NCBI GenBank assembly: GCA_965261395.1
Contig: OZ253462.1
Coordinates: forward strand, 4,992,001-5,056,000
Length of the DNA: 64,000 nucleotides
Direction: 5' to 3'
From: Candidatus Latescibacterota bacterium
GTDB lineage: Bacteria > Latescibacterota > UBA2968 > UBA8231
Shown: positions 1 to 55,090 of the stretch, in pieces
Numbering within the stretch: the stretch's first letter is position 1
How the letters are laid out: each line of letters begins with the position of its first letter
The notes under the pieces: model-generated
Told to the model about the DNA's origin: nothing
The model's input: only the letters and a program-made list of their open reading frames with translations
Database searches by the model: none
Position numbers and translations under genes: made by a program

Positions 1-342
1 AATACGGGCCGCGACGACGCCGAGGTCGTTTTGGAAGCCGGCGAGATCGACAGCAGCACGGTGGCAGTAGGTACCTTCGTCGTGGTCGTCTATGAACGGG
101 AAGAACCACCGCAGTCGCTCTCGGGGGCTTGGGCTAAGCTGGATACGACGAGAGGCTACATTAAAGCCGTGGACCGGCAGGGATTGCTCCTGTCCCTAAA
201 AGGCTGGCCGCAGAGGATCGCCTTGGATCGGATTCAAACGCTGACCCCAAAAATCAGCGAGTCGAGACACTACAAGGATTCAAGCGATACTGGACACCCT
301 TTCGGCGAGAATGAGAAAAGGGAACTACACGGATACCAGTGA
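1..342 (+). CDS. Hypothetical protein, 5'-truncated by the window edge; possibly the N-terminal half of a frameshifted gene continuing in 311..793
   Basis: Frame +1 is open from base 1 to the stop at 342; overlaps the next ORF by 32 nt. Confidence 0.45.
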   Translation, partial: NTGRDDAEVVLEAGEIDSSTVAVGTFVVVVYEREEPPQSLSGAWAKLDTTRGYIKAVDRQGLLLSLKGWPQRIALDRIQTLTPKISESRHYKDSSDTGHPFGENEKRELHGYQ

Positions 343-793
343 GCGGATTGGCCGAAAGTTGGGGTCCGGAATGCAATCGGGGCTTTTGTGTATCTTGCCA
401 AGTGCTTTGTTGTTGGGCTCTATTCTGGCTAAAAAAGCCAACTGCCCCTTAGGGGAGATATTGTGTGGACTAGAATCTTCTATTCTCGGTGGATATATAG
501 GCTACGTGGTTGGAGTACCCATCGGGGTAAGCGCATTGGATCGACACGATTATTTTCGATCGTTGGCCTTTTCGCTGAGTGGTAGCTTCTTAGGGGCTGG
601 CATAGGCTTAGTGCTGATCCAAAGATATGAATTTTTGGGTCCCTTCCTTGTTATCGCCCCGCCTGCCATGGCTACGCTCGCGTCCGAATGGTTTCGCAAT
701 CCACCGGAAGTCTCCCAAGCCCACCGATTCTCCGTCGGTCTGGTACCGAACCCCAAGGGACACCTGTCAGCCGTCGCCACGCTACGCTTCTGA
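311..793 (+). CDS. Hypothetical membrane protein (Gly-rich hydrophobic helices, C-terminus ...VATLRF)
   Basis: ORF track; several hydrophobic Gly-rich segments. Confidence 0.55.
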   Translation: MRKGNYTDTSERIGRKLGSGMQSGLLCILPSALLLGSILAKKANCPLGEILCGLESSILGGYIGYVVGVPIGVSALDRHDYFRSLAFSLSGSFLGAGIGLVLIQRYEFLGPFLVIAPPAMATLASEWFRNPPEVSQAHRFSVGLVPNPKGHLSAVATLRF

Positions 794-23922: not shown

Positions 23923-23998
<76 letters not shown>

Positions 23999-43797: not shown

Positions 43798-44973
43798 ATG
43801 CCCGCGACAATCGACATGCGCTATGGATGCAACCCCCACCAAGCAGCGGCCCGCTGCTTTATGGCCGATGGCCGCGCCTTGCCCATCGAGCCGCTCAACG
43901 ACGCCCCTAGCTACATCAACCTCATGGATGCGCTCAACGCTTGGCAGCTCGTCCGCGATCTCAAACATGCTCTCGGCCTACCGGCTGCCGCTTCGTTCAA
44001 ACACGTCTCCCCAGCAGGTGCTGCCGTCGCCGCACCGCTCGACGAGACCCTGAGCGCGTCCTACTTCGTCGCCGACCGCGACCTCAGCCCGCTGGCCACG
44101 GCGTACGCCCGCGCGCGTGGTGCCGACCGCCTCGCTTCCTTTGGCGACTGGATCGCCCTCAGCGACGTGGTCGATTTCTCCACAGCCGATCTCATCCGCG
44201 TCGAGGTCTCCGACGGGATCATCGCCCCCGGCTACGAGCCAGAGGCTCTGGAGATTTTAAAAAAGAAAAAGGGCGGCCAGTATCGCATCCTGCAAATCGA
44301 CCCTGATTACTCGCCCGCCGCGACCGAACAACGCCAGATATTCGGTGTCGGACTCGCACAGCAACGCAACGATTTTATCCCCGACGACGCCTTTTTCCAC
44401 AACATCGTCACGGCCCGGAAGGACTTGTCGGCTAGTGCCCGCCGCGACCTAACGGTGGCAACCATCGCCCTCAAGTACACCCAATCCAACTCGGTGTGCC
44501 TAGCCCGCGACGGCCAAGTCATCGGCACCGGTGCTGGCCAGCAGTCGCGCGTCCACTGCGTGCGCTTGGCCTGCGCCAAGGCCGACAACTGGTATCTGCG
44601 CCTGCACCCCAAAGTCTTAGGCATGAAATTCGCCAAGGGCCTCAAGCGCCCGGAAAAAATCAACGCCATCGACATCTATCTGCAAGACGACGTCACCCCG
44701 GCCGAACTCCGAGCTTGGGAAGCCAACTTCCGCGAGGTACCAGAACGGCTCAGCGCGGAAGAGAAGCGGGAATGGCTGGACCATCTCAAGGGCGTGGCGC
44801 TGAGTTCAGACGCCTTTTTCCCCTTCCGCGACAACATCGACCGGGCACAGCGTTCAGGCGTGGAGTACTTAGTCCAAGCTGGCGGGTCAACGCGGGATGA
44901 TCTGGTAATCGAGGCGGCAGACGAATACGGAATGTTGATGATTAATTCGGGGGTGAGACTTTTTCACCATTGA
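43798..44973 (+). CDS. purH: AICAR formyltransferase (PurH C-terminal domain only)
   Basis: [44 protein letters not shown]; no MGS/IMP-cyclohydrolase N-terminus. Confidence 0.85.
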
Positions 44974-44979
44974 GGGAAT

Positions 44980-45081
44980 ATGTCTATCTTTGCAAAGGAG
45001 AGCACCAAGAGAAATGCTATGACGCGAACAACCTATGAATTACCGATCCTCTGTACATCCGAAGAACTGCTTGGAGATTGA
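44980..45081 (+). pseudogene. C-terminal remnant of a PIN-domain toxin-like gene
   Basis: Ends YELPILCTSEELLGD*, resembling the P.I.TPEEL tail of PIN proteins. Confidence 0.35.
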
Positions 45082-45083
45082 TT

Positions 45084-45266
45084 ATGATGAAACCAATGAA
45101 CGAAAAAGAAACCACGGATGAAATTATCCAAGAGACAAGAAGGATCAAAGAAGCCTTGGCAAAGGCTATGGATTTCGACCTTGATCGCATTCTAGAAGAT
45201 GCAAGGCAGAGGCAAGAAAAAAGCGGCAGGATTGTTCTCTCTCCTCCAATTCGATCATCTATTTGA
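45084..45266 (+). CDS. Small antitoxin-like hypothetical protein
   Basis: DEIIQETRRIKEALAK pattern. Confidence 0.5.
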   Translation: MMKPMNEKETTDEIIQETRRIKEALAKAMDFDLDRILEDARQRQEKSGRIVLSPPIRSSI

Positions 45267-45286
45267 GACTTCTCTAGGGGATTACC

Positions 45287-46381
45287 ATGCTAAAGCGAAT
45301 TCACATTGACAACTACAAGTGCCTCACCAACTTCGATCTGCGTTTCGGAGAACTGACGCTGCTGCTCGGAGCAAATGGATGCGGTAAGTCAGCCGTATTT
45401 GAGGTTGTGGGGAAACTGCGCGACTTCGTTCGCGGCGATGCACGGGTCGATGAATTGTTTCCCGCTGCTGACATCACGCACTGGAGTACAAAGCTTGAGC
45501 AACACTTTGAATTGGAAGTCGCCATACCCGGTGAAGTATGTCTTTACCGGCTTGTAATTGAACACAACTTGGAAAGACGATCCGCACGAGTAATACGCGA
45601 AGAACTCCTGTCCGATGACAAGCCGCTCTTTACTTTTGTAAACGGCGACGTACAGCTTTACCGCGATGATCACAGCGAGGGGCCAAAATACTCTTTCGAT
45701 TGGACGCAATCGGGTCTTGCACCAGTGGCCGAACGGCACGACAATACCCGGTTGTGTGCATTCCGAGATCAAGTCCGCCGTTTTGTGATACTTTTTTTAG
45801 AGACGAGACGCATGAGGAGCGGTTCGGATTCCGATACCGATAGGCTCAGCGACAGCGGTGAAAATTTTGCTTCGTGGTATCAGGGACGCTTACAAGAGAA
45901 TCCGAGCCGGATCTTTGAGGCGATGGATCACCTGCGCGATGTCCTGCCCGGTTTCGTGGAATTGAGACTCGTACAAAAAGGCACTGATTATAGGGAACTG
46001 CAAGCCGAGTTCTTCCCGAAGGATGGAAAAGCAGGTAGTATCTATCGGTTTGACCAACTCTCAGATGGTCAGCGTGCGTTAATAGTGATTCATTTGCTGC
46101 TCTTTGCCGATGACGCTGAGCGCACTTTGTTTTTGGATGAACCAGATAACTATATAACCCTCCCGGAATTGCAACCTTGGCTCGCCGAGTTGGAGGATGG
46201 CTGTGGCGACACTCTGCCGCAGACTATATTGATTTCGCATCACCCAGAAGCGATTGATTTTCTCAGCGACAAGGCGGTCTGGTTGGGGCGTGAACCGGAG
46301 AGTCATACACGCATCTTGGATGTCAAAAATGACACGATGTTAAAAACATCCGAACTCTACGCCCAGGAGCTCGCACCATGA
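45287..46381 (+). CDS. ABC-type AAA ATPase (AAA_15/AAA_21, defence-associated)
   Basis: GANGCGKS, LSDGQR, LDEPDN, ISHHP. Confidence 0.85.
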   Translation: MLKRIHIDNYKCLTNFDLRFGELTLLLGANGCGKSAVFEVVGKLRDFVRGDARVDELFPAADITHWSTKLEQHFELEVAIPGEVCLYRLVIEHNLERRSARVIREELLSDDKPLFTFVNGDVQLYRDDHSEGPKYSFDWTQSGLAPVAERHDNTRLCAFRDQVRRFVILFLETRRMRSGSDSDTDRLSDSGENFASWYQGRLQENPSRIFEAMDHLRDVLPGFVELRLVQKGTDYRELQAEFFPKDGKAGSIYRFDQLSDGQRALIVIHLLLFADDAERTLFLDEPDNYITLPELQPWLAELEDGCGDTLPQTILISHHPEAIDFLSDKAVWLGREPESHTRILDVKNDTMLKTSELYAQELAP

Positions 46382-46638
46382 CGCAAACAAGCGAAAGCCT
46401 GTCTATCACCTTCAAGGACAGCGTTATTCACAGCCGCAAGGACACTATGAGCGGTATGCCTGTTTTCAAAGGAACCCGCGTAGTTGTAAAGAACCTCTTT
46501 GATTATCTAGCATCTGGGTACAGCCTAGACGTTTTCCTAGATGACTTTCCGTCTGTAAGCCGCGAGCAAGCGGTAAGGGCACTTGAAATGGCAAAAGAAG
46601 CTCTGGAGAGTTACGCTTATGAGAGTGCTTCTCGATGA
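46378..46638 (+). CDS. DUF433 antitoxin-like protein
   Basis: GMPVFKGTRV, LDDFPSVSREQ. Confidence 0.88.
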   Translation: MTQTSESLSITFKDSVIHSRKDTMSGMPVFKGTRVVVKNLFDYLASGYSLDVFLDDFPSVSREQAVRALEMAKEALESYAYESASR

Positions 46639-46942
46639 GTCGGTTCCATGGGCATTGAGACACTATTTGCCCGGACGTGAAGTGCGGACAGTCAAATATA
46701 TGGGATGGGACGGCAAGAGTAACGGTGAACTCTTAGATGTGGCGAGGAATGAGTTCGATGTTCTCATTACCGTTGACCAGAGCATCCAATACCAACAGAA
46801 TATCAGCGAAAAGGATGTTGCGGTCATAGTTCTCGCCGCAAAAACAAACGGCATCGATGATTTGAGAGGGCTGGTTCCTGAACTGCTAAACCACTTGGAC
46901 TTCCCGAAACGCGGGCAAGTCATCCGCATCGAAGCACCGTAA
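46619..46942 (+). CDS. DUF5615 PIN-like toxin
   Basis: MRVLLDESVP, GWDGKSNGELL, LITVDQ, YQQN. Confidence 0.85.
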   Translation: MRVLLDESVPWALRHYLPGREVRTVKYMGWDGKSNGELLDVARNEFDVLITVDQSIQYQQNISEKDVAVIVLAAKTNGIDDLRGLVPELLNHLDFPKRGQVIRIEAP

Positions 46943-46963
46943 CATGGCTCCCCGCTTATTGAT

Positions 46964-49465
46964 ATGGCTGAAAATTTAATCCTTCCACTTGAGGCTTTTG
47001 TTCGTTCAGTTGGCGTGAATCGAGCTACTCAGCATGCATTCTTCCTTGGTGCAGGCGCATCTGTTAGTTCTGGTGTCCCCTCTACCGAAGAATGTATATG
47101 GGAGTGGAAAAGAAGCATTTTCGCAACCAATAACCCAGGCCTCGAAGAGCAATTCTCTGAACTGTCCCTTTCCAACGTCCAGAGCCGCATTCAGAAATGG
47201 CTGGATCGAAAAGGCATATACCCAGAGGCTGGTAGCGCCGAAGAGTATGGGTTTTACATCGAACAATGCTACCCGATCGAGGAGGATTGCCGAGCGTATT
47301 TTCGAGACGGGATACGCTTCGCTAAGCCGCATGTGGGCTATCGTTTACTGGCACGTTTGGCTCAAGGCGACTTAGTACGGTACGTCTGGACAACAAATTT
47401 CGACGGATTGACTGCGCGAGCTTCTGCTGGTTTCAGCCTTATACCAATCGAAATTGGCATTGATTGCCAATATCGTTTGAAGCGGGTTCCATCCAAGGGG
47501 GAACTATTTTGCATTTCTCTACACGGAGATTACCGCTATGACTCCCTGAAGAACACACCAGAGGAGCTACAAACGCAAGAAATAGAACTCCGAGGGGCTC
47601 TTATTGAAAAACTCCGCAATACTCCACTGATAGTGACTGGCTATAGCGGGCGCGACCAATCAGTCATGGAAGCACTTAAAGACGCCTACACCGAACAGGG
47701 AACAGGAACTCTTTACTGGTGCGGGTATGGCGATGATGAGATGCCGGAACACATCGCCGATTTGATTAGACATGCAAGGACAAATGGACGACAAGCTTTT
47801 TATGTTCATTCACAAGGCTTCGACGATTTGATGGAACGCCTTGCCTTGCATTGTCTTGACGGCGAGGCACTCCAAGCGGCGAAAAACGATCTCTCCCGAA
47901 TAGAGACACAGCAAATCACAAGCAATGCATCTGAGATTGAGTTCCCCAAGCAGTGGCTAACGCGAGATGCCGACGTCCACGCCTCCCTCGTCCCCTATCG
48001 CCTGCTGGAAGAAACTCCTGACCTTTCCACCGGCGACCCCAATGCCGGCAACATGCTCATCCAAGGCGACAATCTGGAAGCACTGAAGGCACTGCTGCCA
48101 TTCTACGCCGGCCAAGTGAAGTGCATCTACATCGACCCACCGTATAACACGCGCTCGGCCTTTAAGCACTACGACGACAATCTCGAACACAGCAAGTGGC
48201 TGGCGATGATGTGGCCGCGCCTTGAACTTTTGCGTGAGATGTTGGCCGAGGATGGCTCTCTTTGGGTGTCCATTGACGATAACGAGGCGCACTACCTCAA
48301 GGTCATAATGGACGAAGTGTTCGAGCAGAAAAACTTCATAACCAATGTGGTTTGGCGAAAGAATTACGCGCCAAAGCCAAGCGCAAGGCATTTCTCCGAA
48401 GACCACGACCATATTTTGGTTTACGCTCGTAATGAGGATACCTGGATTCCCAACCCCATGCCGCCCACCGATAAACAAAACAGAGCGTATAGAAATCAGG
48501 ACAACGACCCGCGAGGGCCTTGGCGGCCCAATAATCTTACTGCTCGCAACTACTATAGCAGAGGGACTTATAGTATTCGCTGCCCAGGCGGACGTTTAAT
48601 TGAGGGACCACCTGCTGGTTCATATTGGCGAATTTCGGAAGAAAAATTTTGGGAGATGGATCGCGATGGGCGTATATGGTGGGGTAAGGACGGCAATAAC
48701 GTCCCTGCACCCAAGATTTATCTGAACGAGGTCAAGCAGGGCATTGTTCCGCAGACATTGTGGAATTACGAAGATGTTGGTCACACGCAGGACGCAAAAA
48801 AGGAAACTGTGAAGCTATTTGGTAGTGAAGTTTTCGGAACACCAAAACCCGAACGTCTTATCCAACGCATCCTCCACATCGCCACCAACACCGGCGACCT
48901 CGTCCTCGACTCCTTCCTCGGCTCCGGCACCACCGCCGCCGTAGCGCACAAGATGGGCCGCCGCTACATCGGCATTGAAATGGGAGAGCACGCCGTTAGC
49001 CATTGCGTCCCGCGCCTGAACAAAGTGATTGACGGCGAACAAGGCGGCATCTCCAAAAGTGTCGGCTGGCAGGGCGGCGGCGGGTTTCGCTTCTATCGCC
49101 TCGGCCCACCCATGTTCGATGAGGAAGGGCATATTCGCTCCGACATTCGCTTTTCCGTGCTCGCCGCTCACGTCTATTTCAGCGAAACCGGGCGTCCGTG
49201 GCGCGGTAACAGCGTTTCCCCCTTCCTTGGCCTGTACGATGGCCGCGCTTATGCACTGCTGTACAACGGCATCCTCGAAGACAAAGGCAACGTCTTAACC
49301 CGTGAGACCCTCGCTGTGATTCGAGAGGAGATTACGCGCAAAGATGCTGATTTCGCCGGGCCGCTCACAGTCTACGGCGAGCAGTCGCGCTTGACGCTAG
49401 CGACGCTCGACCGGGAGCGCATCGTCTTCAAACAGACGCCCTATGACGTGAAAGTAAGGACTTGA
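46964..49465 (+). CDS. mod: SIR2-domain / Type III R-M methyltransferase (Mod) fusion
   Basis: aa 1-~300: FLGAGASVSSG, TTNFD, LHGDYRY, GYSGRD, GFD; from aa 331: WLTRD, IQGDNL, IDPPY, TPKPE, DSFLGSGTT. Confidence 0.9.
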   Translation: MAENLILPLEAFVRSVGVNRATQHAFFLGAGASVSSGVPSTEECIWEWKRSIFATNNPGLEEQFSELSLSNVQSRIQKWLDRKGIYPEAGSAEEYGFYIEQCYPIEEDCRAYFRDGIRFAKPHVGYRLLARLAQGDLVRYVWTTNFDGLTARASAGFSLIPIEIGIDCQYRLKRVPSKGELFCISLHGDYRYDSLKNTPEELQTQEIELRGALIEKLRNTPLIVTGYSGRDQSVMEALKDAYTEQGTGTLYWCGYGDDEMPEHIADLIRHARTNGRQAFYVHSQGFDDLMERLALHCLDGEALQAAKNDLSRIETQQITSNASEIEFPKQWLTRDADVHASLVPYRLLEETPDLSTGDPNAGNMLIQGDNLEALKALLPFYAGQVKCIYIDPPYNTRSAFKHYDDNLEHSKWLAMMWPRLELLREMLAEDGSLWVSIDDNEAHYLKVIMDEVFEQKNFITNVVWRKNYAPKPSARHFSEDHDHILVYARNEDTWIPNPMPPTDKQNRAYRNQDNDPRGPWRPNNLTARNYYSRGTYSIRCPGGRLIEGPPAGSYWRISEEKFWEMDRDGRIWWGKDGNNVPAPKIYLNEVKQGIVPQTLWNYEDVGHTQDAKKETVKLFGSEVFGTPKPERLIQRILHIATNTGDLVLDSFLGSGTTAAVAHKMGRRYIGIEMGEHAVSHCVPRLNKVIDGEQGGISKSVGWQGGGGFRFYRLGPPMFDEEGHIRSDIRFSVLAAHVYFSETGRPWRGNSVSPFLGLYDGRAYALLYNGILEDKGNVLTRETLAVIREEITRKDADFAGPLTVYGEQSRLTLATLDRERIVFKQTPYDVKVRT
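49420..49465 (+). repeat. mod 3'-end repeat, copy 1
   Basis: CATCGTCTTCAAACAGACGCCCTA (24 bp) identical to 51268..51291. Confidence 0.9.
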
Positions 49466-49496
49466 GACGCGAATCTGACCAGAAAGGAGATTCAAT

Positions 49497-51248
49497 ATGT
49501 ACCAAACCGGTGACACTATCCGAAAAATTCTTTATGAAATCGAGCGCCATGATATTGTGTTGCCCGCCATCCAACGCGAGTTCGTATGGAAGCCGGAACA
49601 AATCTGCCAGCTATTTGACAGCATCATGCAGGGATACCCCTTTGGTACCTTTCTCTACTGGAAGGTCCAGCCGGAAAACAGTACTAAATTCCAATTCTAC
49701 GATTTCGTTCTCAATTATCATGAGCGGGACGACCCCCATTGCCCGCAACTGTCCCCGATGCCGAATCGGCAGTTGACGGCAGTACTCGATGGACAGCAGC
49801 GCCTGACCGCACTGAATATCGGCCTGCGTGGGACCATGGCTTGGAAGTTGCCGTACAAGTTTCGGACTAATCCCGATGCCTTCCCTGAGCGTCGTCTTTA
49901 CCTAGACCTCCTTTGGAACCCTGACGAAGAGGACGAAACGGGGAGACAGTACCACTTCGATTTTCTGACAGAAAAAGAAAGTCAAGAGAGCGATGAGAGA
50001 GAGGGGGAATGCTATTTTCCTGTTGCGGATATACTGCCGATGGCCGGGGGGCTTCCTATGGTAGAGTGGCTAAACCAGCGGCTGCCGCAGGAACAAGTGA
50101 ACCAAGCTTTCAGCACGCTCGATAAACTTCACCGGGTTGTACATGCTGAAAAGATAGTGGCCTTTTACGAAGAACGCAGCCAAGAGCTCGAGAAAGTCCT
50201 CCAGATCTTCATTCGTACGAACAGCGGTGGGACCATTCTCTCGTATTCGGACTTGCTGCTTTCGGTCGCGGTCGCGCTATGGAGAAAGCGTGACGCCCGA
50301 GAAGAGATTCATGCGCTGGTGGATGAGCTTAACAGAATTGGCAGCGGCTTCTTTTTCTCCCAAGACTTGGTTCTCAAGGCTGGGCTGATGCTGAGCGACA
50401 TCGGCAGCGTTGGCTTTAAGGTGGATAACTTCAACCGAGAGAATATGGCCAAGTTAGAAGAGAAGTGGAACGATATAAAACAAGCCCTGATCTTGACAGT
50501 CCAGCTAGTTTCCCGTTTCGGCTTCAATGGACAGACCTTGAGTGCAGACAGTTCCATTCTGCCGATTGCGTACTATCTCTACATGCGAGACCCAGGAGAA
50601 TCCTATCTAACGAACAGTAGGTTCAAACAGGATCGGCAGGAGATCCGTAAATGGCTAATTCGGAGCCTCCTGAAGGCTGGCATCTGGGGTAGCGGCTTGG
50701 ATACACTGCTGACTGCGCTCAGGCAGATCATTAAAGAGAATAGCAGCAATGATTTTCCTGTCACCCGGATTCGTGAAGAAATGACACGCCGGGGCAAATC
50801 GCTTGTCTTTGAGAAGGAAGAACTGGAGGAGTTGGCTGATATGCAGTACGGTAACAAGCTCACATTCGCTCTGCTGTCACAAATATTCCCCTTCATTGAT
50901 CTGAGCAACCATTTCCACATAGACCATATCTTTCCCCAATCTCGATTTACCGATCGGCGACTTAGAGATGCAGGTGTCCCGGATGACAAGGTAGAAGATT
51001 TCAAACAGCTCAAAAATGGACTTGCCAATCTTCAACTGCTTCAAGGTCCAGAGAACAACGAAAAACGCGCCAAGATGCCGGCTGATTGGCTATCCCAAAT
51101 GTACCGTGATGATCCCAAGGGCAAGCAGGCAGACAAAGACCGGCACTTGCTAGGAGAGGTTCCGGAGGAAATAACAGAGTTCGATGTTTTCTACGCTGCT
51201 AGGAGAGCACGTTTGAAGTCGAAAATCGACCAGTTGCTGGGGAGTTGA
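49497..51248 (+). CDS. GmrSD-like DUF262 + DUF1524 (HNH) Type IV nuclease
   Basis: PAIQREFVW, DGQQRLT, FIRTNS, HIDHIFP...NLQLL...N. Confidence 0.88.
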   Translation: MYQTGDTIRKILYEIERHDIVLPAIQREFVWKPEQICQLFDSIMQGYPFGTFLYWKVQPENSTKFQFYDFVLNYHERDDPHCPQLSPMPNRQLTAVLDGQQRLTALNIGLRGTMAWKLPYKFRTNPDAFPERRLYLDLLWNPDEEDETGRQYHFDFLTEKESQESDEREGECYFPVADILPMAGGLPMVEWLNQRLPQEQVNQAFSTLDKLHRVVHAEKIVAFYEERSQELEKVLQIFIRTNSGGTILSYSDLLLSVAVALWRKRDAREEIHALVDELNRIGSGFFFSQDLVLKAGLMLSDIGSVGFKVDNFNRENMAKLEEKWNDIKQALILTVQLVSRFGFNGQTLSADSSILPIAYYLYMRDPGESYLTNSRFKQDRQEIRKWLIRSLLKAGIWGSGLDTLLTALRQIIKENSSNDFPVTRIREEMTRRGKSLVFEKEELEELADMQYGNKLTFALLSQIFPFIDLSNHFHIDHIFPQSRFTDRRLRDAGVPDDKVEDFKQLKNGLANLQLLQGPENNEKRAKMPADWLSQMYRDDPKGKQADKDRHLLGEVPEEITEFDVFYAARRARLKSKIDQLLGS

Positions 51249-51267
51249 TTCCCCACTGGCGGGAGGA

Positions 51268-51313
51268 CATCGTCTTCAAACAGACGCCCTACGATATCAA
51301 AGCGCGCACCTGA
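51268..51313 (+). repeat. mod 3'-end repeat, copy 2 (orphan IVFKQTPYDIKART*)
   Basis: Ends 3 nt before the res ATG. Confidence 0.88.
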
Positions 51314-51316
51314 TCC

Positions 51317-54001
51317 ATGCAGCTAAAACAATATCAAGCCGACACCCTCTCCGTCCTGCGCCGCTTCTTCGAGGAAGCGCGTATCGCCGGCCCCAAAAAC
51401 GCCTACGAAGCCATAACCCAAGAGCCAGAGCAGGCTGCGCGGCTTAGAGGCTATGCCGAATCTTACGCACCGCTAAAAGAATTGCCAGACGTTCCCTACG
51501 TCTGCCTGCGCCTACCCACCGGCGGCGGCAAAACAATCCTCGCCGCCCACGCCGTCTCCATCGCCCGCAATGCTTGGATCGAAAAGGACTATCCATTAGT
51601 GCTGTGGCTGGTGCCGACCAAAACCATCCGTCGACAGACAGTCGAGGCGCTGAAAAACACCCGCCACGCTTATCGGCAAGTGCTGGACGACGCTTTCGAC
51701 GGCCGGGTGCGCGTATTCGACATCGCCGACTTCACCCATATCCGGCCGCACGACTTGCGCGACCACTGCTGCATTGTGGTCGGCACCATTCAAACGCTGC
51801 GGGTGTCGAACACCGAAGGGCGCAAAGTGTACGCCCACAACGAGGAGATGGAACCGCACTTCTCCGGCGTCCGGGATACTGCGCCTGGCTTGGAAAAGCT
51901 GGACAATGGCACCGTCAAATTCTCCTTCGCCAACCTGCTGCATCGCCATCAGCCCCTGATGATAGTCGATGAGGCACACAACGCCGTCACCGGCCTGACG
52001 CGGGAAATGCAGGCGCGAGTCAACCCCTGCGCCATCGTCGAATTCACGGCAACCCCGCAGCGCAAGTCGAACATCCTACACAGCGTCACCGCCCAAGAAC
52101 TCAAGCGAGAAGAAATGATCAAACTGCCCATCATGCTCGCCGAGCACGACACTTGGCAAAACGCGGTGAACGGGGCCATTGCCGCCTGTGCTTCACTAGC
52201 AGAGACTGCGAAGGACGATGCCGACTACATCCGTCCCATCATCTTGTTCCAAGCGCAGCCGAAAAACCAAGAGGTAACAGTCGCGGCTCTGAAAAATCAC
52301 CTGATGGACATTGAGCAAATCCCGGAAAGCAAAATCGCCATTGCCACCGGCGACCAACGCGAACTCGACGGCATCGACTTGTTCGACCGCACCTGTCCCA
52401 TCGAATACGTCATTACGATCGAGGCGCTCAAAGAAGGCTGGGACTGCTCCTTCGCCTACATTTTCTGCTCCGTATCGCGCATCCAAAGTGCAACAGACGT
52501 GGAGCAACTGCTCGGCCGCGTACTGCGGATGCCCTATGCCACGCGCCGCCAAGCACCCGGCCTCAACAAAGCCTACGCCTTCCTATCCGAGCCATCTTTT
52601 GGCGAAGCCGCGCGCGCCTTGGCCGACAAATTGGTGGACATGGGCTTTGAGGAAGACGAAGCCCTCGACCACATCGAGCCGGTGCAGCGCACGCTCGACT
52701 TCCAGAGAGACTTGTTCAGTCCGCAGGAAAAGCCGGAGCCGATATTCAGCTATACGACCCCGGCAACCCCAGAAATCCTGTCCGAACTCAGAGAGGCAGT
52801 GCACGACGGGCTGCTAGTACGCGAAACCGCTGAAGGGCAGGTCGAGATCGCGCTTACTGGCTGGATCAATCAGGACCGCAAGCAGGTGATTTTGGAGGCA
52901 TTGCCCGAGCAAGAGCGAAAAGGTTTTGCCACTGCCGTTACCCAATACCGCGCCGCAGTCAAGGAGCAAATATCCCCTGCCGAACAGGGGCAGCCATTCA
53001 AAGTCCCACGCCTGATGTCGGAAATCCAGGGCACGCTGGAATTCGCCGATACGGACGTGTTCATGGAATACCACGACTGGTCGCTACTCGATTATTCGCC
53101 AAAAATGGACGAACAGGAGTTCACTATCCACGAGACAGCGCGCAGTTTTGCAATAGACATTGACGGCAATCGCATCACCTACCAGTTCGCCAGCGAAGAG
53201 GAGCAATTGGCGCTGGACATTGCCGTCGAAGGCTGGACCGCTGAAGCGCTCGTCCTGTGGCTCGATCGGCAGGTACGCCAGATGGACATTCACCAGAGTG
53301 AATTACTCAAATGGCTGCGCCAACTGGTCAATCACCTGCTCAACACACGCGGCATGACCATCTCCGCGCTAATGCGTTGCAAATTCCTGCTCGCCAAGAA
53401 AACCGAGTACAAGATCGCGGCCATTCGCCAAAAGCAACGAAGCAGCGTCTATCAGCAGTACCTCTTGGTGCCCAAGGCCAACACAACGGTCTCGTTCGAT
53501 ACGGCCTTCACATTTGTGGACAACATGTATTGGGATCAACGGCGCTATCGCGGGCGCTGGAAACCAAGCAAGCACTTTTTAGGCCCAGATCGCGTTCCCG
53601 CCTTTGACGGTGCGGACGACGGCGAGGAAATGCGATGCGCTCAGGTCATCGACAGTCTAGCGGCAGTGAAGTACTGGATTCGCAATGTAGCGCGCCATCC
53701 CAACTCGTTTTGGCTGCCCACCGCAACAGACAAATTCTACCCGGACTTTGTCGCTTTGCTAAACGATGATCATCTCCTCGTCGTCGAATACAAGGGAGCG
53801 CATATCGCCGAAGGATCGGATACCAACGAGAAGCGGACCATTGGTGCTCTTTGGGAGAAGTCGAGCGACGGCAAGGGCCTGTTCATCATCGCGGAGCAAA
53901 TGGTCGATGGGAAGGACGTGCGGCAGCAGTTGCAAGAAAAAACCTGTGGCCACCCCATCGCGTCTCTTCCACCCAAACGCATCCCCAAGGAACCGTCTTA
54001 G
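51317..54001 (+). CDS. res: Type III restriction endonuclease Res subunit
   Basis: LKQYQ, PTGGGKT, DEAH, TATP, LKEGWD, QLLGRVLR; C-terminal FYPDF...VEYKG nuclease motif. Confidence 0.92.
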   Translation: MQLKQYQADTLSVLRRFFEEARIAGPKNAYEAITQEPEQAARLRGYAESYAPLKELPDVPYVCLRLPTGGGKTILAAHAVSIARNAWIEKDYPLVLWLVPTKTIRRQTVEALKNTRHAYRQVLDDAFDGRVRVFDIADFTHIRPHDLRDHCCIVVGTIQTLRVSNTEGRKVYAHNEEMEPHFSGVRDTAPGLEKLDNGTVKFSFANLLHRHQPLMIVDEAHNAVTGLTREMQARVNPCAIVEFTATPQRKSNILHSVTAQELKREEMIKLPIMLAEHDTWQNAVNGAIAACASLAETAKDDADYIRPIILFQAQPKNQEVTVAALKNHLMDIEQIPESKIAIATGDQRELDGIDLFDRTCPIEYVITIEALKEGWDCSFAYIFCSVSRIQSATDVEQLLGRVLRMPYATRRQAPGLNKAYAFLSEPSFGEAARALADKLVDMGFEEDEALDHIEPVQRTLDFQRDLFSPQEKPEPIFSYTTPATPEILSELREAVHDGLLVRETAEGQVEIALTGWINQDRKQVILEALPEQERKGFATAVTQYRAAVKEQISPAEQGQPFKVPRLMSEIQGTLEFADTDVFMEYHDWSLLDYSPKMDEQEFTIHETARSFAIDIDGNRITYQFASEEEQLALDIAVEGWTAEALVLWLDRQVRQMDIHQSELLKWLRQLVNHLLNTRGMTISALMRCKFLLAKKTEYKIAAIRQKQRSSVYQQYLLVPKANTTVSFDTAFTFVDNMYWDQRRYRGRWKPSKHFLGPDRVPAFDGADDGEEMRCAQVIDSLAAVKYWIRNVARHPNSFWLPTATDKFYPDFVALLNDDHLLVVEYKGAHIAEGSDTNEKRTIGALWEKSSDGKGLFIIAEQMVDGKDVRQQLQEKTCGHPIASLPPKRIPKEPS

Positions 54002-54158
54002 AGCGACTTCTGCGCCTCCGGTTGTGGCGCGCAGCGCGTCGCTTGTGCGTACGGTCGCCCTGCCACTTCCGCCAACAATTCCTCGCAATGCACATACAGA
54101 CCCAACTGCCGTCGCGTGGCTTCCATCGGCCCGACGATCCCAAGGCGCACCGCAGCGC

Positions 54159-54311
54159 TCATCTGGTCTCTGAGCACTTGAAACATGTAAAGCTGTAATC
54201 GGCCTCGACCTTGGGGCTAAGAATCTTCAACGGTGCGACGGCCAAGCAAGATGTCAACCGCGACCTTCCCCCGACGCGGCTCACTTCGACGATGGACCAA
54301 GCCTCGTCCAT
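54159..54311 (-). pseudogene. Possible N-terminal remnant of a UreD-like gene
   Basis: MDEAWSIVEVSRVGGRSRL...PLKILSP, then loss of similarity and early stop. Confidence 0.35.
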
Positions 54312-54316
54312 GCCGA

Positions 54317-55090
54317 TCAGATCGGCGCTAACCAACCCCCATCGACCGGCAACGCCGTCCCCGTAATCCACTCCGCGTCATCCGAGGCAAAAAACGCCAC
54401 CGCCCGCCCAATGTCCCTCGGCAAGCCCAAGCGCGGCAAGGGCGTATCCCGCCGACATTGCTCGATGATCTCCGGGGTTAAATAGTCTTGGATCGGCGTC
54501 TCGATATAGCCCGGGCATACCGCGTTGACCGTGACGTTGTCCCCAGCCAGTTCCAACGCCGAATCCCGCGTCAGATTCACCACCCCGGCCTTAGTCGGCG
54601 CATAGGCCGGACCGCCACCGCCGCCGAAGGCGTGGACCGAGGCAATGTTGACGATGCGCCCAGCCGCGGATTTTCGCAGATAGGGCGCGGCAAATTTGGT
54701 CGAGAGGAAGATCGAGCGCAGATTGACCCCCACGACCCGGTCCCACGCCTCGACGGATAGTTCTTGGCTGTCTCCCAGTATGATGATCCCGGCGTTGTTG
54801 ACCAAAATATCCACCCCGCCAAAGCGCTCGACACTGCGGGCGATTAGCTTTTCCACTGCCTTTTCGTCGGCCACATCAGTCTCGACGAAGAGCGCCTCGC
54901 CGCCCTCCTCGGCAATAATCTCGGCCGTGGGTGGCTGCGGCGCGGTCTCGTGAAACCTGCCGATCTTGGGCGCTTCCTGTATATCGGCCACTGCAACCTT
55001 GGCCCCTTCGCGGGCCAGTTCGAGACAAATACCCCGCCCAATCCCCGAACTCCCTCCGGTAACAACGGCGATGCGATCCTGCAAACGCAT
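54317..55090 (-). CDS. SDR family oxidoreductase
   Basis: TGGSSGIG, NNAG, YAPTK, VNAVCPG, VDGG. Confidence 0.93.
   Translation of the reverse strand: MRLQDRIAVVTGGSSGIGRGICLELAREGAKVAVADIQEAPKIGRFHETAPQPPTAEIIAEEGGEALFVETDVADEKAVEKLIARSVERFGGVDILVNNAGIIILGDSQELSVEAWDRVVGVNLRSIFLSTKFAAPYLRKSAAGRIVNIASVHAFGGGGGPAYAPTKAGVVNLTRDSALELAGDNVTVNAVCPGYIETPIQDYLTPEIIEQCRRDTPLPRLGLPRDIGRAVAFFASDDAEWITGTALPVDGGWLAPI

Follow-up and report, generated by a model that had tools for sequence, protein, structure and literature searches.

A SPARSA-clade SIR2 domain joined to a Type III methyltransferase in a Latescibacterota bacterium: a lineage-specific chimera with a likely origin by deletion

The fusion gene and its two halves

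The DNA that we analyzed, referred to below as the window, is a stretch of 64,000 nucleotides from a Candidatus Latescibacterota bacterium (contig OZ253462.1 of assembly GCA_965261395.1, positions 4,992,001 to 5,056,000), and within it lies a single open reading frame (ORF), P0001, that joins a SIR2 NADase-type domain to the methyltransferase subunit (Mod) of a Type III restriction-modification (R-M) system, by way of a linker of the type found in SIR2-pentapeptide-repeat (SIR2-PPR) proteins (Table 1). The translation of 833 residues contains zero internal stops and would correspond to a protein of ~94 kDa; beyond the join, M364 is the earliest in-frame ATG, GTG, or TTG. We conclude that P0001 is a genuine, lineage-specific chimera. 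The locus belongs to the Type III R-M systems, with a Mod that bears a SIR2 domain of the clade found in short prokaryotic Argonaute, SIR2-APAZ (SPARSA) systems; the fusion is built from known parts and has been seen once. A preliminary description of the window, made from the letters alone, had listed an uninterrupted ORF of this length, a set of SIR2 motifs, a Mod beginning at W331, and the DPPY and FLGSG motifs, and every one of these was located in the translation.

Table 1. The fusion gene, its neighbors in the window, and genes found next to mod in related genomes (G, genome; L, locus)
Feature	Position	Strand	Evidence or remark
Fusion ORF P0001, 833 aa	46964..49465	+	SIR2 domain, PPR-type linker, Type III Mod
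SIR2 NADase-type domain, residues 1-310, SPARSA clade	46964..47893	+	PADLOC PDLC02384, PDB 8jkz, invariant columns
Linker, residues 311-331, ending in the junction Trp codon (47954-47956)	47894..47956	+	Comparison with P0121 and P0122, DNA alignment
Type III Mod, from Mod residue 7 to the end, with stop codon	47957..49465	+	PADLOC PDLC03644
Motifs of the SIR2 half	residues: GAGAS 29-33, IWEWK 45-49, EEYGFY 93-98, TTNFD 143-147, LHGD 186-189, HGDYRY 187-192, GYSGRD 226-231		
Motifs of the Mod half	residues: W331 (nt 47954-47956), DPPY 391-394, FLGSG 651-655		
GmrSD/BrxU-like Type IV restriction gene (HEC-05), 583 aa	49497..51248	+	Pfam GmrSD_N and GmrSD_C, PADLOC HEC-05 743 bits
Type III Res, 894 aa, intact	51317..54001	+	PADLOC REase_III PDLC03650 600 bits, Pfam ResIII
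DUF433 (46378-46638) and DUF5615 (46583-46942) pair, directly upstream of the fusion	46378..46942	+	Pfam
ABC/AAA_21-type ATPase, HEC-01A-like, left edge of the low-GC island	45287..46381	+	
PPR genes beside mod	L020:6611-8011, L021, L023:6830-8092, L024, L028:4331-5605, L029; also L009 (G046)		
SIR2-APAZ-pAgo gene upstream of mod, 1101 aa, G001	106 nt away		1384 bits to PDLC02384
E2 gene upstream of mod, G006 and G007			Part of a cyclic-oligonucleotide-based antiphage signaling system (CBASS) set: patatin, cyclase, E2
TIR-like effector upstream of mod, G030 and G028			
PDC-M71 kinase and TPR pair upstream of mod, G026			

Pfam places SIR2_2 at residues 141-263 (E 9e-11) and N6_N4_Mtase at residues 385-679 (E 5e-51), and gives no Pentapeptide match in P0001. 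The PADLOC model for prokaryotic Argonaute (pAgo) systems, PDLC02384, matches residues 4-320 with 448 bits, covering only positions 2-316 of 1030 in this fused SIR2-APAZ-pAgo model, and residues 22-310 align with the Sir2 subunit of two solved SIR2-APAZ/Ago complexes in the PDB, 8jkz and 8in8 (E 1e-33); both results agree with the preliminary assignment of this domain to the SPARSA-like subtype. In the PDB-match alignment, N145, H187, and D231 of P0001 stand opposite N142, H186, and D230 of GsSir2, and the residues of GAGAS, TTNFD (N145), HGD (H187), and GYSGRD (D231) occupy invariant columns of an alignment of 25 relatives; P0001 retains every invariant SIR2 column of this alignment. The D230A substitution in GsSir2 is reported to abolish both NAD+ binding and defense (bioRxiv 10.1101/2021.12.14.472599).

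The second half matches the PADLOC Type III methyltransferase model PDLC03644 over residues 331-831 with 629 bits, as well as two Type III Mods in the PDB, 6k0w (E 2e-46) and the EcoP15I Mod 4zcf (E 4e-33), and it is 72-84% identical to stand-alone Mods, of 509-530 aa, among the 120 matches listed. The Mod half is also a mosaic, in that residues 482-581 are 82-94% identical to P0003 and only 56-60% identical to P0009, and the C-terminal part, judged by an identity profile along Mod, is nearer to P0009 than to P0003. This pattern would fit a shuffling of target-recognition domains.

Search for further SIR2-Mod fusions

Other proteins with this architecture were sought by three word-indexed searches of 5.8 billion clusters and by one exhaustive HMMER search of 1.84 billion representatives. 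These searches list top matches, so that very distant fusions could escape them, and a fusion resembling P0001 would rank first. The full-length query gave 7998 matches, and among the 120 listed PF13289 and PF01555 occur together only in the query itself, the other 119 being Mods of 485-551 aa that cover 55-61% of it. Residues 1-325 alone gave 2542 matches, and among the 120 listed here PF01555 was again present only in the query. When the search was centered on the junction (residues 235-440), the score fell from 472 bits for the query to 228 bits for the protein ranked second, which covers 53-54%. In the exhaustive search, 0 of the best 150 representatives match both halves, and the six longest Mods of that list contain no Pfam domain besides N6_N4_Mtase.

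The SIR2-Mod fusion is therefore a singleton so far, and the architecture search that the preliminary description had proposed returned no second fusion among the matches listed. The statement made there that no SIR2-Mod system had been described holds for the proteins in these searches, and also for the literature, in which we found no description of a SIR2-Mod or a SIR2-pentapeptide protein, with the limit that the supplements of SPARSA and pAgo papers might list SIR2 fusions.

The junction in independent sequencing runs

To see whether the join at nt 47954 is real DNA, we compared contigs of individual sequencing runs with the window over positions 46800-49600; one of these runs is possibly the source of the assembly, and the others are independent of it. 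Contigs with zero differences span the join in 4 of 4 runs, which come from 4 different studies (46800-48073 in X1 and X5, 47104-48073 in X6, and 47091-48073 in X8). Depth in X1 is even, with 40.5 ahead of the join and 38.3 beyond it, and the position has no listed loose ends. Two RNA runs contained 4-5% of the sampled words. An assembly artifact that fused two separate genes would have only the uniqueness of the architecture to recommend it; it would have to be reconciled with four bridging runs that show no difference, with even depth and no loose ends, and with a microhomology at the join of at most ~7 nt, which is too short for the collapse of a k=31 graph. Since zero-difference contigs of four runs bridge the junction, we consider the join not to be a misassembly, and an artifact of this kind extremely improbable. 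The sequences are identical across the runs, which indicates one lineage present in several samples and not conservation across diverged lineages.

Origin of the fusion

Among the matches listed, SIR2-PPR proteins of 655-686 aa from metagenomes (P0121, P0122, P0123, P0125, and P0133) stand nearest to the SIR2 half, with 72-86% identity (86% for P0121), and the next nearest are SIR2-APAZ-pAgo proteins of 1046-1101 aa, at up to 79%. A tree of SIR2 domains gives P0001 as the sister of P0121, P0122, and P0123, all of them SIR2-PPR proteins. The phylogeny proposed as a check in the preliminary description thus places P0001 next to SIR2-PPR proteins rather than to SIR2-APAZ-pAgo proteins, within the SPARSA clade.

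The linker leads to the same parent. The linker of the fusion (...ETQQITSNASEIEFPKQW), a form of which is shared by P0121, P0122, and P0123, tracks P0121 and P0122 up to the junction Trp. Past this Trp, the fusion reads LTRDAD..., i.e., residue 7 onward of the stand-alone Mods, which begin with MPTLHW and continue with LTRDAD..., and the Trp codon is common to both parents, being codon 6 of the stand-alone Mods. In the DNA alignment, similarity to stand-alone mod genes begins at TGGCTAACGCGAGA, and the break shows the same microhomology of at most ~7 nt.

A direct deletion between a SIR2-APAZ-pAgo gene and mod has to be weighed against this parentage, and such a gene does lie 106 nt upstream of mod in G001 and 69 nt upstream in G127. 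However, residues 312-331 of P0001 follow the SIR2-PPR linker and not that of the APAZ-type proteins (P0124 and those of G001 and G049), which depart from the fusion immediately past ...AAKND, and the tree likewise groups P0001 with the SIR2-PPR proteins. We regard this route as highly improbable, and other origins or an artifact, taken jointly, as very unlikely. The preliminary description had reasoned that its reading would fall if the junction were a misassembly, or a one-off deletion between a SIR2-Ago gene and mod with no NADase activity or phenotype. The first of these is contradicted by the run contigs; of the second, the half that concerns a one-off deletion is borne out, with a SIR2-PPR gene as the parent. 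Its proposal that Mod has replaced Argonaute as the sensor is not supported, since the immediate parent, as judged by the linker, was a SIR2-PPR protein and the fusion is a singleton made by deletion. The SIR2 gene of G049, which lies at a contig end, was tried as a SIR2-PPR candidate and proved to be of the APAZ type; G049 contains no Mod of P0001's Mod family.

The arrangement of related loci supplies the other half of the argument. A P0001-type Mod is carried by 14 of the 31 genomes of the genus, and we compared the 13 other loci with the window. These 13 loci share a frame of a purH-like gene, an ABC-type ATPase, DUF433/DUF5615, mod, and res, and in 6 of 13 (G009, G020, G012, G018, G005, and G022) a PPR gene is located directly upstream of mod. 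The protein that it encodes, of 410-501 aa, has two N-terminal transmembrane (TM) helices, a conserved helical region, and pentapeptide repeats, and the stop codon of the gene overlaps the mod ATG (TAATG or TGATG) in five of these six loci and abuts it in the remaining one. The repeat module of P0121 is 50-61% identical to these upstream PPR genes of the genus, and its C-terminus (...SEVPEDDS) is the same as theirs. In addition, P0121 is encoded on one contig only, and so is the Mod P0009, and in both cases the contig measures exactly 10,600 bp. The DUF433/DUF5615 pair, or DUF433 alone, is found just upstream of PPR genes at L004, L006/L024, L007, L010/L021, and L011. PPR paralogs with no Mod beside them also occur (L004, L005, L007, and L011), and those of L004, L007, and L011 lie just downstream of DUF433 or of the pair.

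From these data we infer an ancestor in which a SIR2-PPR gene adjoined mod, in the order DUF433-DUF5615, SIR2-PPR, mod, res. An in-frame loss of ~1 kb, with one end at the Trp codon that closes the SIR2 linker and the other at Trp6 of mod, would have turned this ancestor into the present locus, and would have taken the pentapeptide-repeat module (~324 residues), the overlap of stop and start codons, and codons 1-5 of mod. It is the combination of a PPR-type linker, a Trp join at Mod codon 6, and a PPR gene that ends on the mod start that points to such a deletion, and on these sequence comparisons we consider the deletion origin of the fusion to be largely shown.

Neighboring genes and variation among related loci

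The preliminary description had stated that no APAZ or Argonaute is present in the window. We confirm this, and the same applies to the whole 6.55-Mb genome, where a six-frame search with the 1055-aa SIR2-APAZ-pAgo protein P0124 matched only P0124 residues 4-321. At the fusion locus, a genome search with P0121 matched only residues 1-332 of this protein, and it revealed no other copy of a PPR module like that of P0121. The Mod of P0001 is the sole Mod of its family in this genome. As for the cognate res, which the same description had placed downstream, an intact gene is indeed found there; it is not adjacent to mod, however, as a GmrSD gene of 1.75 kb that had gone unmentioned splits the two. 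In the 13 other mod-res loci of the genus, this GmrSD gene has no tblastn match (E <= 1e-8).

The island at 45000-54000 has a GC content of 0.49-0.58, vs 0.60-0.65 in the flanks, which is consistent with horizontal acquisition of the defense cluster. Orthologs of the ATPase, with 80-96% identity, are present in the corresponding island of G001, G022, and G030; in the window the ATPase gene is followed by DUF433, and in G001 and G022 its ortholog is followed by a 170-aa ORF that is absent from the window. Beyond res, the ORFs past 54001 encode SDR, DUF1684, GHMP-kinase-like, and NYN-domain proteins with no PADLOC match, and the idea of a split SIR2-Ago remnant in this region was rejected. A promoter and terminator scan of 44900-54400 showed no enrichment over shuffles. 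The only Rfam match in the window is a tRNA gene (23926-23998, minus strand).

The region upstream of mod is a defense hot spot whose contents vary by species (L022, L025, L026, L027, L031, L032, and L038; for examples see Table 1). In another family of the class, G046 contains a PPR gene followed by mod, and G127 contains PPR, SIR2-APAZ-pAgo, mod, and res genes in this order. Degraded copies of the R-M system were also observed: in G027 (L030) Mod is matched from residue 98 onward and Res is split into three, and in G028 (L032) Mod is frameshifted and Res is fragmented. The upstream PPR protein has no PADLOC match, and it might act as a so far undescribed accessory to R-M systems or to the DUF433/DUF5615 pair. 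A predicted complex of residues 93-457 of the G009 PPR protein with the G009 Mod scored 0.00 in two runs, with the controls not folded, and is evidence neither way.

Functional state of the two halves

Since the genome encodes no second Mod of this family, whatever Type III activity the organism has must depend on the fusion. The Mod half, complete save for its first five residues, would still methylate DNA and act as the recognition subunit for Res, and it is most likely that the fused Mod does both of these, methylating DNA and serving the intact Res. The SIR2 half keeps all of the NAD-binding and catalytic residues and would have lost the module that senses the trigger, which would leave it as a latent passenger that the cell tolerates; we consider the tethered SIR2 to be most probably such a passenger and not an evolved guard. 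A SIR2 domain-only protein is reported to be inactive unless lid residues 83-94 are swapped for a flexible linker (PMC10474274), and activation of the NADase is reported to be tied to a target-induced tetramerization that aligns H186 (PMC11452484). Because the isolated domain is inactive in these reports and is activated via sensor release or tetramerization, and because the fusion has no sensor, its SIR2 is likely silent, and this would explain why the deletion was tolerated. An AlphaFold2 model of the fusion, built from a 13-row alignment (mean pLDDT 57.8, pTM 0.40), has a fairly confident SIR2 core and a pLDDT below 50 at residues 314-346; weak as this model is, it suggests a flexible linker between SIR2 and Mod. 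Our preferred reading, which we hold to be probable, is that the fusion arose by deletion, that its Mod still works, and that its SIR2 is latent.

Several observations weigh against this reading, some of which concern the ancestor and some the SIR2 half. No SIR2-PPR gene was found in a search of 168 genomes of the phylum; a scan of genome contigs found only PPR-module or distant SIR2-pAgo loci and no SIR2-PPR gene, and a scan of metagenome contigs found one distant SIR2-pAgo locus and again no SIR2-PPR gene. The contig size shared by P0121 and P0009 could have arisen by chance, as 1-3 such coincidences are estimated among the listed proteins, and six were found. The SIR2 half bears no sign of decay in Tajima relative-rate tests, for which it was compared with P0121, P0122, and P0123 using five outgroups (p = 0.09-0.72). 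No ORF of the cluster is disrupted, and four studies contain the fused allele in identical form. This combination of intact SIR2, intact ORFs, and shared allele also fits maintenance by selection. Finally, P0001 has six substitutions at sites that are identical in 24 of 24 relatives (D10E, A41T, R109C, H131R, S140Y, and E216K), where P0121, P0122, and P0124 have 0-1 and one distant relative also has six; these could be due to relaxation or to adaptation. A wider linkage of SIR2 and Mod, drawn from the six shared contig sizes (10600, 6295, 4536, 33287, 6283, and 4625445), was tried and set aside as too near the chance expectation.

The same observations bear on a different account, in which P0001 is a working covalent guard whose SIR2 NADase is governed by the state of the Type III enzyme. 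Type III Mods dimerize, and their complexes collide on two-site DNA, as in EcoP15I. Two (SIR2-Mod)2Res complexes converging on unmethylated DNA would unite four SIR2 domains, or an anti-restriction protein would distort Mod and release SIR2, and failed or ongoing restriction would in either case lead to NAD+ depletion and abortive infection; this mechanism is inferred throughout. It would accord with the intact catalytic and NAD-binding residues, with the lack of rate acceleration in the SIR2 half, with the identical allele in four studies, with the dependence of any Type III activity on the fusion, and with the activation of SPARSA-type SIR2 by tetramerization reported in PMC11452484. SPARSA-type SIR2 genes also adjoin this mod family elsewhere, in the form of SIR2-APAZ-pAgo genes directly upstream of mod in G001 and G127. 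Against a guard stand the singleton status of the fusion among billions of proteins and its formation by the deletion of a presumed sensor module, not by the gain of one. Moreover, the slot upstream of mod also holds CBASS, TIR-like effector, PDC-M71, and TM-PPR genes in sister species, and with such varied occupants the adjacency of SIR2 and mod looks like defense-island packing; SIR2-pAgo also occurs with no Mod nearby in G113, L018, and L033. We regard a working guard as unlikely, and an evolved self-guarded R-M system as possible from the sequence but unsupported by comparative evidence. A broader proposal treats the fusion as a "Rosetta stone", in that the SPARSA-type SIR2 effectors of the island, whether SIR2-PPR or SIR2-APAZ-pAgo directly upstream of mod, would be functionally wired to the Type III enzyme, with the wiring now covalent in the P0001 lineage and NAD+ depletion following on (SIR2-Mod)2Res oligomerization at unmodified DNA or on anti-restriction attack. 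The restriction enzyme would then have an abortive-infection arm of its own; this we hold to be rather unlikely.

At the other extreme, the locus could be in decay, with its Type III system crippled by the loss of the Mod N-terminus and by the GmrSD insertion, in which case P0001 would be an early pseudogene that has no stop codons yet. Across 33 family Mods, M1 and P2 are invariant and L4 almost so, and the fusion has lost these three residues; 1.85 kb intervene between mod and res, vs 6-180 nt in relatives; mod and/or res are broken in the corresponding island of G027 and G028; and the six unusual SIR2 substitutions would also be in line with decay. However, none of the three large ORFs (of 833, 583, and 894 aa) is interrupted, the catalytic motifs of Mod are intact and its sequence is retained from W6 onward, and Res shares 86-96% identity with its intact counterparts at 10 loci of the genus. 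The N-terminal conservation of Mod may, moreover, stem from the overlapping end of the upstream gene or from start signals. We consider a decaying locus distinctly unlikely, and continue to favor a fusion made by deletion, in which Mod works and SIR2 is latent.

Implications

Even as an accident, the fusion means that a SPARSA-type SIR2 module has moved among three partners (APAZ-pAgo, pentapeptide repeats, and Mod) in one island, and it offers a natural test of whether SIR2 of this type remains inactive once its sensor is gone. Should it be possible to trigger the tethered SIR2, P0001 would be the first restriction enzyme to bear its own NAD-depleting suicide module, and would offer a compact model for the rewiring of immune sensors and effectors. 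Two by-products of this work may equal the fusion itself in worth, i.e., an undescribed SIR2-PPR family, and a membrane-anchored PPR gene whose stop repeatedly overlaps the start of a Type III mod, an overlap that suggests translational coupling.

Comparison with known systems

With EcoP15I-like Type III R-M systems (Mod2Res), the locus shares the N6_N4 methylase motifs, similarity along the full length of Mod, and a same-strand Res downstream; it differs in the 331-residue N-terminal SIR2 extension, in the loss of Mod's own first five residues, and in the GmrSD gene between mod and res. The HEC-05 representative is reported to be 99.2% identical to BrxU, and HEC-05/BrxU GmrSD genes are reported to nest in Hma, BREX, DISARM, and R-M loci (bioRxiv 10.1101/2024.01.29.577857). 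The GmrSD gene of the window is likewise nested inside another defense system, but its position is between a Type III mod and res, and it is found in this genome only among the 14 loci of the genus.

Toxic effectors are tied to R-M systems in PrrC with EcoprrI, in RloC, and in PARIS. These effectors are proteins in their own right, combine ABC-ATPase sensors with tRNA-directed nucleases, and recur across genomes. P0001 resembles these systems in the back-up logic only, i.e., in an effector that is genetically tied to R-M, whereas its link is covalent, is a singleton, and comes without a sensor module. No recurrent association of effector and R-M system was found here, the fusion being seen once and the gene upstream of mod differing among the 13 sister loci.

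The likeness to SPARSA is closer in sequence: the SIR2 of P0001 belongs to the same clade, is 79-81% identical to the SIR2-APAZ-pAgo proteins of related genomes, and keeps the counterparts of N142, H186, and D230. The APAZ, MID, and PIWI domains were searched for and are absent from P0001, from the window, and from the genome, so the guide-RNA/target-DNA trigger of SPARSA cannot operate, and with neither APAZ nor pAgo the locus does not count among the SPARSA systems.

Closest of all are the SIR2-PPR proteins, of which P0121, P0122, and P0123 share with P0001 both the SIR2 domain and a linker ending in ...PKQW; P0001 differs in having a Mod in place of their C-terminal helical region and PPR module (~324 residues). 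In the SIR2-PPR proteins as a group (P0121, P0122, P0123, P0125, and P0133), a SPARSA-clade SIR2 is combined with pentapeptide repeats that replace APAZ-pAgo, and these proteins fall into two separate SIR2 clades, a distribution that suggests repeated swaps of the module, or sensor, attached to this type of SIR2.

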